The notes: a model not told the origin generated them from the sequence alone. Shown: positions 16,245 through 17,850, counted from the first letter of the stretch. The stretch is 24,441 bases of DNA from Clostridium sp. (GCA_022782605.1 JALFMW010000225.1:1-24441), one strand, 5' to 3'. Numbers and translations: made by a program.

Positions 16245-16835
16245 ATGAGCAATATATATGTAATTAGTGATACACATTTCGGTCATTCAAAAAATTTTAT
16301 TTATGAGCCTAGAGGATTTAAAAATATCTATGACCATGATAATGCTATAATTAAAAATTGGAACGAAATAGTCCAACCAGAAGATGATGTTTATCTTTTA
16401 GGAGACGTTATGCTAAATGATAATGATTATGGATTATCATGTTTGAAACAATTAAAAGGACAAATTCATATTATTAGAGGAAATCATTGTACTGATGCAC
16501 GAATTGAACTATATAAGAAATGTAAAAATATAGTTGAAGTTTGTGATGCGAAATGGTTAAAAGTAAATGGACAAATGTATTTTTTATCACACTACCCCTG
16601 TTTGACAGATAACCAAGATGCTGATAAACCTTTGAAGAGAAGAATTGTAAACCTATGTGGACATACCCACTGTAAAAATAAATACAAAGATATGGATAAG
16701 GGTTTAATTTATCACGTAGAATTAGATGCACATAATTGTAAACCGATATTAATTGAAGAAATAATAAAAGATATTAAAACATTTATTTCTTTGGACAAGG
16801 ATGCCCAAAAAAGACTTTGTGAAAATGATACATAA
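16245..16835 (+). CDS. Calcineurin-like metallophosphoesterase; candidate 2',3'/3'-phosphatase partner of the upstream kinase (split Pnkp)
   Basis: Motifs SDTHFGH, GDVM, GNHC, CGHTHC. Confidence 0.7.
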   Translation: MSNIYVISDTHFGHSKNFIYEPRGFKNIYDHDNAIIKNWNEIVQPEDDVYLLGDVMLNDNDYGLSCLKQLKGQIHIIRGNHCTDARIELYKKCKNIVEVCDAKWLKVNGQMYFLSHYPCLTDNQDADKPLKRRIVNLCGHTHCKNKYKDMDKGLIYHVELDAHNCKPILIEEIIKDIKTFISLDKDAQKRLCENDT

Positions 16836-16861
16836 TATCAAATAACAAAGGAGAAATATTT

Positions 16862-17653
16862 ATGAAAAAAATAGATATGACAGGATGGATAATGGCAGAG
16901 CATGGTGTTCCAGATAGTAGACTTACTGTAATTAAAGAAATTGAACCTCATATAACCCCAGGAGGGAATCGATATATTCAATATTTATGTAAATGCTCAT
17001 GCGGGAATGAAACTATTGTTAGAAGTAGTTACTTAAGAAATGGAAATACTAAATCTTGTGGGTGTCTTGCTAAAGAAAAACTTGCACAACGAAACATTAA
17101 CAATGGAGAGATTGTTAATGTTGGAGATAAATTTGGTCATCTTACAGTAATTAAAGATTTAGGAATGAGAAAACAAGTTTCAAGAAATAAAAATTGGAGA
17201 TGGTCTTTATGCCAATGTGATTGTGGAAGCGACCCTATTGAGGTTCCAAACAACCAATTAAGGACTGGGCAAAAAAAATCCTGTGGATGTTTAACTTCAT
17301 TAGGAGAAGAGACTATTGAAAAAGTATTAAGAGAAAATAGTATACATTATATTAAAGAATACAGTTTTTCAGACCTTAGAGATGATATAAGTCATAGAAT
17401 GTATAGATTTGATTTTGCTATTTTTGAAAATGATATACTACAATATCTTATTGAGTTTGATGGCAGTCAACATTATGTAGAAGCATCTGGTTCATGGAAA
17501 AATAAAAGAACATTAGAAGATATACAACGTATAGATGAAATAAAAAATGATTATTGTAGAAAAAATAATATTAAATTAAAAAGAATACCGTATTTTAATT
17601 TAAGCTATATAACTTTTGATAATATTATATCTGATAAATGGGATATAAATTAA
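16862..17653 (+). CDS. Putative freestanding homing endonuclease: two CxCxCG...SCGC zinc-ribbon repeats plus a C-terminal PD-(D/E)xK (Vsr/DUF559-like) nuclease domain
   Basis: CKCSCGNETIV...KSCGCL and CQCDCGSDPIEV...KSCGCL repeats. C-terminus FDFAIFENDILQYLIEFDGSQHY matches the D...(E/D)xDG.QH nuclease motif. Confidence 0.45.
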   Translation: MKKIDMTGWIMAEHGVPDSRLTVIKEIEPHITPGGNRYIQYLCKCSCGNETIVRSSYLRNGNTKSCGCLAKEKLAQRNINNGEIVNVGDKFGHLTVIKDLGMRKQVSRNKNWRWSLCQCDCGSDPIEVPNNQLRTGQKKSCGCLTSLGEETIEKVLRENSIHYIKEYSFSDLRDDISHRMYRFDFAIFENDILQYLIEFDGSQHYVEASGSWKNKRTLEDIQRIDEIKNDYCRKNNIKLKRIPYFNLSYITFDNIISDKWDIN

Positions 17654-17773
17654 CAAGATAAATGGATTGATTGGAACAAGGGATTGATTTATCATGTAGA
17701 TTGTGATGCACAACACTGTACACCTATTGAAATTAATAAGATAAAAGAAGAAATAAAGAATAAACTTGCATAA
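17654..17773 (+). pseudogene. Orphan duplicated 3' end of the metallophosphoesterase gene (homolog of residues about 150-185 of the 16245..16835 product), directly after the endonuclease stop
   Basis: Translation DKWIDWNKGLIYHVDCDAQHCTPIEINKIKEEIKNKLA* versus the phosphatase C-terminus DMDKGLIYHVELDAHNCKPILIEEIIKDIKTF. No start codon; in frame with, and immediately after, the HEG stop codon. Confidence 0.6.
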
Positions 17774-17798
17774 TATTTATTATGCAAGTTATTTTTAT
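17763..17798 (+). terminator. Intrinsic terminator (AACTTGCATAATA-tt-TATTATGCAAGTT, then a T-run)
   Basis: 13-bp stem followed by ATTTTTATT. Confidence 0.65.
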
Positions 17799-17850
17799 TA
17801 TGAAGGCGATGACGGATTTTAACACATACGCTAGATATTTTTTGAACAAA

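Follow-up and report, generated by a model that had tools for sequence, protein, structure and literature searches.

A probable homing-endonuclease cassette with a replacement 3' gene end inside a bacteriophage metallophosphatase gene

Introduction

Gene hybrids generated by mobile open reading frames (mORFs) have been described in the mitochondria of fungi, namely in atp6 of Allomyces macrogynus, in atp6, atp9, cox2, and nad3 of Glomus, and in cob and atp6 of Endoconidiophora (PMC3630166, PMC6279837). In these hybrids a foreign C-terminal segment borne by the element replaces the native segment in frame, which has been taken as horizontal transfer (PMC3630166, PMC6279837). The free-standing Seg and Mob endonucleases of T4-like phages exhibit intronless homing through double-strand-break repair in mixed infection, accompanied by co-conversion of flanking sequence, and the alleles that carry them are protected through sequence differences (PMC2988022, PMC2330249, PMC2790892). 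The T4 Seg and Mob genes are intergenic, or they divide one gene so that it yields two functional polypeptides (mobE in nrdA, mobA in gene 60). In the literature searched, the phage endonuclease genes described are free-standing ones in intergenic positions, residents of introns or inteins, or genes that split others (PMC2988022, PMC10448857, PMC2677866). For gene-end replacement by a homing endonuclease in phages, the literature that we searched yielded only the fungal mitochondrial cases, although a phage report may exist.

Here we analyze a 24,441-nucleotide stretch of DNA from Clostridium sp. (GCA_022782605.1, JALFMW010000225.1:1-24441), hereafter the window, in which an endonuclease gene and a second gene end are found inside a phage phosphatase gene; positions are counted from the first nucleotide of the window, and the parts of this locus are all on the plus strand. 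The locus resembles the mitochondrial mORFs in its combination of a foreign C-terminus, an endonuclease ORF, and a downstream native C-terminal segment (C*-terminal) that is closer to element-free relatives. It differs from them in its host, which is a bacteriophage and not an organelle, in the predicted fold of the endonuclease, which is Vsr-like and not LAGLIDADG or GIY-YIG, and in its target, an RNA-repair-type phosphatase gene. Furthermore, the endonuclease is encoded here by a separate cistron with its own ribosome-binding site, whereas the mitochondrial endonucleases are fused in frame, and both donor-type and empty alleles are available here at near identity. As with the T4 Seg and Mob genes, a free-standing endonuclease gene adjoins its target gene; in contrast to them, the insertion is within a coding sequence whose displaced part comes with the cassette, and the T4 review describes neither duplication nor replacement of gene ends.

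Results

The phosphatase gene and its neighborhood

The interrupted gene (16245-16835) encodes a calcineurin-like metallophosphoesterase of 196 amino acids that is intact yet chimeric, as judged from Pfam, PHROG, and the discordant identities of its N- and C-terminal parts to homologs. It matches the Pfam models Metallophos_2 (37.5 bits, cut-off 27) and Metallophos (27.4 bits, cut-off 21.5) and the PHROG phosphoesterase family phrog_547 (E = 5e-44). The calcineurin-like motifs DxH, GD, GNH, H, and GHxH are all present in the translation, as SDTHFG, LGDV, GNHC, SHYP, and GHTH. Its neighbors are tRNA genes and genes for a Thg1-like protein, an RNA ligase, and a polynucleotide-kinase-like P-loop kinase, which together form an RNA-repair-type block in a phage of ~140 kb with low G+C content; this neighborhood suggests that the phosphatase may act in RNA end healing. 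No match to 50,697 phage records was obtained by megablast, whether with the region or with the whole window, and tblastn of the endonuclease and the phosphatase against isolate phages found relatives at no more than 35% identity. Neither a cultured relative nor a prior annotation of the arrangement described below was found in the phage collection searched.

A stranded phosphatase gene end lies directly past the endonuclease gene

Past the stop codon of the endonuclease gene (TAA, 17651-17653), and in the same frame, there are 39 codons that read QDKWIDWNKGLIYHVDCDAQHCTPIEINKIKEEIKNKLA and end in a stop. A preliminary description of this DNA had likened the fragment to the C-terminal region of the phosphatase, and the resemblance is significant when formally aligned. 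BLASTP of the fragment against the 196-amino acid phosphatase gave an ungapped alignment to residues 144-182 (18/39 identical, 29/39 positive, E = 2e-10), and an unbiased tblastx comparison of the DNA downstream of the endonuclease gene with that upstream gave 51% identity over 35 codons (E = 2.6e-9). The identity of ~55% that had been claimed is too high, the measured values being 46-51% by BLASTP and tblastx. The match had also been assigned to the C-terminal 35 residues; the similarity to this region stands but it does not reach the very end of the protein, since the attached copy extends 14 residues past the matched region. This tail (LDKDAQKRLCENDT, 16791-16832) is absent from endonuclease-free alleles. 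In the nucleotide alignment that the preliminary description had proposed, the two gene-end copies align from ~16674 and 17657; they are ~70% identical in DNA and share no long exact repeat.

By comparison with an uninterrupted allele, contig L036, the native homology truly begins at 17657, and the bases 17654-17656 (CAA) are junction sequence. The stranded native 3' end of the phosphatase gene, hereafter the orphan, thus occupies 17657-17773, which is equivalent to codons 145-182 and the stop, and it has neither a start codon nor a ribosome-binding site of its own. The terminator reported past the fragment is also present, as a hairpin with a 12-bp stem followed by a T run (17763-17790) that overlaps the orphan stop codon; within 15900-18000, two terminator-like sites were found versus 0.5 expected. 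The same hairpin follows the intact gene of L036, and the feature (17763-17800 with its T run) is the native intrinsic terminator of the phosphatase operon, kept with the orphan. Read-through from the endonuclease into the orphan, or fusion of the two, was considered and rejected, as the frame relation is not conserved and the orphan of contig L044 contains a stop codon. The 9-nt repeat GATAAATGG, found at 17634 and 17657, was likewise set aside as a recombination junction, being present in two copies instead of one. It is probably coincidental, since it occurs twice and DK(W/Y) is native to the C-termini of homologous endonucleases (L004, L006).

An uninterrupted allele gives the limits of the insertion

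A protein search with the phosphatase returned ~1,400 homologs that fall into two length classes. One homolog, P0010 (180 amino acids), is almost identical to the window phosphatase in its central part, and its C-terminus is identical to the orphan at 38/38 aligned residues, as is that of P0057. P0010 is encoded by an uninterrupted allele on contig L036, which measures only 726 nt. Over the 3' end of the kinase gene (15902-16049) L036 and the window are 100% identical, over 16310-16631 they are about 99% identical, and from 16632 they diverge sharply. L036 rejoins the window exactly at the orphan, where L036 568-726 is 97.5% identical to 17657-17814, a segment comprising the orphan, the terminator, and the start of the next intergenic region. 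The whole inserted cassette, bounded by the last matching position on the left (16631) and the first on the right (17657), is therefore 16632-17656, a length of 1,025 bp. A native segment of ~40 nt, which encodes ...GRKVINICGHLHAL and extends from the left breakpoint to the start of the orphan, is replaced in the window. The predicted empty site that the preliminary description had proposed to seek is L036. A misassembly of L036 is unlikely, as the two copies share no long exact repeat. Uninterrupted alleles are also found in the relatives L045-47 and L001, which have no adjacent endonuclease, and these alleles, like L036, carry a single gene end.

The breakpoint at 16631/16632 divides the phosphatase gene into a resident 5' portion (codons 1-129, 16245-16631) and an imported 3' end (codons 130-196 and the stop, 16632-16835) that includes the GHTH motif, and the reading frame is unbroken across it.

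The attached gene end is foreign and the cassette has entered two backgrounds

Identity of homologs to the window phosphatase was calculated separately for an N part (residues 21-128) and a C part (residues 130-182). P0010 is 99% identical in the N part and 47% in the C part, and its own C part shares 97% identity with the orphan. The short, tail-less proteins P0004-P0009, among which P0004 was confirmed to be endonuclease-free in L045, are 87-92% identical in the N part and 57-62% in the C part. The endonuclease-free alleles are therefore 87-99% identical to the window in the N part but only 47-62% in the C part. The opposite pattern is exhibited by P0001-3 (N 73-75%, C 94%), P0011 (N 66%, C 83%), and P0103 (N 50%, C 79%), and the same C-terminal module is found on differing N-terminal backgrounds in P0001-3, P0011, and P0044. 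The attached phosphatase 3' end is foreign, and the earlier proposal of a replacement 3' end brought in from a donor agrees with a C part that is 94% identical to alleles whose N part is 74% identical, the original end being stranded downstream.

The contigs that encode P0001 (L037-L041) have the order phosphatase, 263-amino acid gene, orphan; the orphan is visible in L037-L040, and L041 ends earlier. When the window is compared with L037, identity is 74.7% over the phosphatase 5' part (16245-16631), 84.9% over 16632-16684, 99.3% over 16685-16835, 100% over the spacer (16836-16861), and 99.4% (787/792) over the endonuclease gene (16862-17653), falling to 65.8% over the orphan (17657-17773) and to about 50% in the flanking genes. 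The near-identical tract (16662-17655) contains 6 mismatches in 994 nt, with 65-75% identity immediately outside it. Near-identity restricted to the cassette indicates that the same cassette recently entered two backgrounds that are otherwise 25-50% diverged, and each of these backgrounds retains its own native gene end as the orphan.

The right boundary of the cassette is shared between the window and L037 (17655/17656). The left boundary differs, at 16632 in the window and 16661/16662 in L037, as would be expected of co-conversion tracts of variable length. The preliminary description had regarded the replaced 3' end as a whole as a co-conversion tract. That interpretation fits only the short stretch left of the insertion point, 16632 to ~16674 in the window, whose extent varies as that of a co-conversion tract does; the greater part of the replaced 3' end belongs stably to the cassette, and its signature C-terminal tail is conserved across lineages. 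The gene ends of the main-clade cassettes share the tail F-I-S-L/M-D-K-x-x-Q..., which the endonuclease-free alleles do not have.

The endonuclease gene and its predicted product

The free-standing endonuclease gene (16862-17653, 263 amino acids) is preceded by a spacer (16836-16861) in which a ribosome-binding site, AAGGAG (16848-16853), can be read. A terminator scan detected no terminator between the phosphatase and endonuclease genes, and the endonuclease gene, having a ribosome-binding site yet no terminator upstream, is probably co-transcribed with the phosphatase gene. Searches of Pfam (one weak, sub-threshold match), NCBIfam, and PDB, with the single sequence and with a 43-sequence profile, found nothing significant for the endonuclease, whereas PHROG families annotated as homing or intron-encoded endonuclease match it. 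The assignment as an endonuclease therefore rests on predicted structure and the PHROG annotations. In the predicted structure, the catalytic domain (residues ~146-250) appears to have the fold of the Vsr endonuclease, and the phage proteins related by structure are annotated as homing endonuclease or group I intron protein. The Zn-ribbon/PD-(D/E)xK label of the preliminary description is appropriate at the level of fold only, with a Vsr-like fold and invariant Cys clusters in the N-terminal half.

Conservation was measured on an alignment of 43 homologs. Two Cys-rich modules (~20-70 and ~92-145) precede the nuclease domain; in the first repeat C45, C47, C66, G67, and C68 are invariant and C43 is present in at least 90% of the sequences, and in the second C117, C119, C121, C141, and G142 are invariant, with C143 in at least 90%. 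The invariant residues of the C-terminal domain are D184, E198, D200, H204, and K228. Candidate residues for an EDxHD motif are E149, D184, and H204, which are invariant, and D225, present in at least 90%; their order in the sequence alignment is compatible with the motif. The endonuclease has no detectable sequence similarity, also when the profile is used, to the EDxHD/Vsr-like enzymes (I-Bth0305I, phage Hef, and the 'fractured gene' endonucleases). Its N-terminal half is composed of two CxCxC...CGC modules and not of NUMOD or HTH motifs, and Pfam detected no NUMOD or HTH domain there. In addition, it is free-standing and associated with gene-end replacement, unlike those enzymes, which are intron- or intein-borne. 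We suggest that it may work like the EDxHD/Vsr-type homing endonucleases (PMC3239194), although we keep it out of the EDxHD family because the Cys-rich modules take the place of the NUMOD-type DNA-binding region and the composite motif is represented by candidate residues in a compatible order.

Recurrence at the same codons and stages of decay

A phosphatase C-terminal fragment directly past the endonuclease stop codon is found in the window, L037-40, L042/43 (encoding P0023), L044 (P0070), L132 (P0103), and L006, and a short orphan remnant of ~11 codons is found in L005. The endonucleases of the orphan-bearing lineages are 48-99% identical to that of the window. All of the orphans begin at the equivalent of phosphatase codons 141-151, just past the last catalytic motif, GHxH. 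Identity of the orphans to the C-terminal ends of short, tail-less alleles, a type that lacks an endonuclease at the loci examined, is 65-100% in every case, compared with 47-58% between each orphan and its own attached copy, and in the window and five other lineages the native end is nearer to element-free relatives than to the inserted copy.

An identical endonuclease protein is encoded on 14 contigs, and the gene order was the same at 6/6 places returned, from six different samples. The longest contig with the identical endonuclease, L133 (141.8 kb), is 97-98% identical to the window and represents the same phage. Stages of decay can be recognized as well. In L038, L039, and L041 the endonuclease gene is frameshifted, in L132 it is disrupted, the orphan of L044 has acquired a stop codon, and that of L005 is truncated. 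L049/50 possess a tail-type gene end with neither endonuclease nor orphan, and no convincing endonuclease remnants were found in L049; these alleles could be due to loss of the endonuclease, or the portable gene end could originally have come from alleles of this kind. In L004 and L061 a related endonuclease gene is located upstream of the phosphatase gene with no duplicated fragment, and the association of endonuclease and phosphatase is therefore not always of the gene-end-replacement form. Across 35 viral loci of the wider endonuclease family, flanking duplication was found only in the window and L006, and duplication of neighboring gene ends was therefore rejected as a general habit of that family. 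A phosphatase gene is also present at 20/123 loci of family members, adjacent to the endonuclease gene in most, and these are mostly the closer endonuclease relatives.

Discussion

We favor the interpretation, with a probability of roughly 0.87, that window positions 16632-17656 are a mobile homing-endonuclease cassette inside a phage metallophosphatase gene, which would have entered by cutting near the GHxH codons and repair during co-infection, displacing the native gene end. The steps that we propose are drawn from established homing by double-strand-break repair (PMC2988022, PMC3943268). The cassette comprises a substitute for the last third of the gene (starting a few codons ahead of GHxH and ending at the stop, with the 14-residue tail), the ribosome-binding site, and the free-standing endonuclease gene. 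The endonuclease would cut cassette-free alleles at or very near the codons just past GHxH, where the orphans begin; judging from the junction position, the target in L036 (~540-585) is predicted to lie around ...TGTGGACATTTACATGCTCTT / GATAAATGGATTGATTGG..., near the junction at 567/568. Repair would then use a cassette-bearing genome, present through co-infection, as the template. After resection of some tens of bases, the left end would invade the donor phosphatase sequence and leave a short co-conversion tract of variable length, synthesis would copy the donor gene end and the endonuclease gene, and the right end would be recovered in the 3' gene end of the recipient itself, the donor orphan supplying the homology. 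The native 3' end of the recipient and its terminator would be pushed downstream as an untranslated relic, and in later rounds of homing the orphan would probably provide the right-hand homology arm. The phosphatase gene stays intact because the cassette supplies the displaced 67 codons in frame. The carrier allele is presumably immune, since around GHxH many positions are not the same in the imported and the native sequence.

Only one alternative remains serious, namely that the cassette was made by one illegitimate recombination and is spread by ordinary homologous recombination, with an endonuclease that is inactive or has some other role and an orphan that is a passive scar. The frameshifts in several copies of the endonuclease gene are in keeping with this, the phages of this group are mosaic anyway (for example, in a separate 5' patch from 16050 to ~16500), and the activity of the endonuclease is a prediction. 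General recombination does not sit easily with the sharp fall of identity at both ends of the cassette in backgrounds that are 25-35% diverged, nor with an insertion point that is the same within a few codons even though the endonucleases are only 48-68% identical. Moreover, 14 contigs share one identical and intact endonuclease ORF, and the 43 homologs show no variation in its catalytic and Cys residues. The sharp ends, the fixed insertion point, the intact ORF, and the invariant residues together suggest selection on an active, site-specific enzyme, and we regard spread by general recombination as unlikely.

The presence of two homologous gene ends 1 kb apart on the same strand could also be explained if the orphan were the remnant of a tandem phosphatase paralog that has lost its 5' part, the endonuclease having landed between the copies. 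This is highly improbable given that L036 has one gene whose 3' end is the orphan, that the attached 3' end matches the one of a distant background at 99% identity, and not the orphan, and that two copies are found in none of the examined relatives without an adjacent endonuclease. We attach an equally low probability to a group I intron or a (split) intein carrying the endonuclease, with the downstream fragment as a true second exon or extein. Relatives of the Vsr-like fold such as I-Bth0305I are indeed associated with introns or inteins (PMC3239194, PMC2677866), and the window fragment is in frame with the endonuclease ORF; however, the upstream ORF already has a complete homologous C-terminus and its own stop codon and is complete without splicing, no intron family was matched in Rfam at gathering scores or at E ≤ 1, the orphans of L044 and L006 are out of frame, with an internal stop codon in that of L044, and a 14-residue tail is far below the size of an intein fragment. 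Least probable of all is an assembly or chimeric-contig artifact. The relatives are metagenome assemblies, but the same structure is found in independent assemblies of many samples by different assemblers, and copies that are ~70% identical in DNA offer no long exact repeat that would mislead an assembler.

With homing as the preferred explanation, the locus is a very clean phage example of a mechanism described so far mainly in fungal mitochondria. We rate the mechanism itself as ordinary, the evidence as unusually complete, and the host type and the endonuclease fold as new for the gene-end-replacement architecture. The alleles of one homing event are all at hand, including the empty L036, the filled window, the cassette in the diverged L037, and the stages of decay; the recombination breakpoints are resolved to single bases, and a prediction of the cleavage site is possible. 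Annotation pipelines would show only a slightly longer phosphatase, a 'hypothetical protein', and intergenic DNA. Gene-end cassettes make chimeric genes and can mislead single-gene phylogenies of phage proteins. The endonuclease family, with more than 1,000 homologs and no Pfam model, could supply new nucleases with long targets.

The locus indicates that phage homing endonuclease genes can hold a conserved active-site position without an intron or intein by carrying the segment that they displace. A broader proposal, to which we would give slightly less than even odds, is that the Vsr-fold clade and its portable spare gene end, which the conserved 14-residue tail identifies, have long co-evolved as one mobile unit whose site of invasion is the catalytic GHxH codons in RNA-repair phosphatase genes of phages. 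If this is true, the spare-end unit would be a stable third lifestyle of phage homing endonuclease genes in coding sequence, beside introns or inteins and the splitting of genes, and the stranded native end would have a second role as the downstream homology arm when homing next takes place.

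Further endonuclease genes at the phosphatase hot spot

Endonuclease genes of other kinds or in other positions adjoin the phosphatase gene in related contigs, marking this gene as a hot spot for them. A GIY-YIG gene lies downstream of the phosphatase gene in L003 (6846-7421), and in L042 (4364-5026), and likewise in L043, a GIY-YIG gene overlaps the start of the phosphatase gene. Relatives of the window's Vsr-like endonuclease are found directly upstream of the phosphatase gene in L004 (5699-6520) and L061, and no duplicated phosphatase fragment was detected in these two contigs. 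The phosphatase homolog of L002 (5950-6520) has an apparent frameshift near its 5' end, with MSQTFFTSDLH in one frame and the remainder in another, and fragments of a different endonuclease-like ORF occupy the kinase position upstream.

The phosphatase alleles of two other relatives, L049 (1124-2001) and L050, possess the C-terminal tail typical of the cassette's imported gene end (FFISLNENAQ...), and the 290 nt 3' of these alleles contain neither an endonuclease gene nor the orphan, i.e., the stranded native phosphatase 3' end. Either the endonuclease gene and orphan have been lost from these alleles, or they represent the ancestral source lineage of the portable gene end. At the junction of endonuclease gene and orphan in the window there is a 9-nt direct repeat, GATAAATGG, present in the last endonuclease codons (17634-17642) and again in the first bases of the orphan (17657-17665). 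The repeat may be a relic of the original formation of the junction, or it may be coincidental, given that the C-termini of homologous endonucleases natively contain DKW/DKY.

A second mosaic patch (window 16043-16500) was observed at the opposite end of the phosphatase gene from the cassette. The patch contains a 60-aa Cys-rich ORF (16043-16225), and within it the 5' end of the phosphatase gene is divergent. Both features are missing from the empty-site allele L036 and from L133/L134, which outside the patch are 97-100% identical to the window. Their phosphatase start codon is at the position where the 60-aa ORF starts in the window, and ATGATTT is common to both.

TAG codons in an endonuclease gene homolog

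The copy of the endonuclease gene in the relative L006 (5962-6735) contains seven in-frame TAG codons and no TAA, TGA, or frameshift, and in the alignment homologs mostly have E, Q, or K at the positions of these TAG codons. This pattern suggests TAG reassignment in the L006 phage instead of random decay of the gene, perhaps limiting endonuclease expression. In-frame TAG codons are absent from the adjoining genes, and the 11.7 kb of L006 sequence contains no tRNA gene.

Other genes of the phage

Further genes in the window include five tRNA genes (535-1543), and genes encoding a DUF2828/DUF7788 protein (1561-3048), an 816-aa protein that includes a major-vault-protein shoulder domain (6453-8903), an HNH_3 endonuclease (9305-9856), and a homolog of Thg1-like tRNA-His guanylyltransferase (11031-11879). 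These genes and those for the ligase, kinase, and phosphatase make up an RNA-repair-type block of unusually large size.

The near-identical 141.8-kb contig L133 contains an additional 1.2 kb (16237-17479), corresponding to window position ~23097, that carries a gene for a GIY-YIG endonuclease of 307 aa, located upstream of the gene for gyrase B. This endonuclease gene, missing from the window, is a further case of a homing endonuclease gene that is polymorphic for presence or absence within the same phage population.
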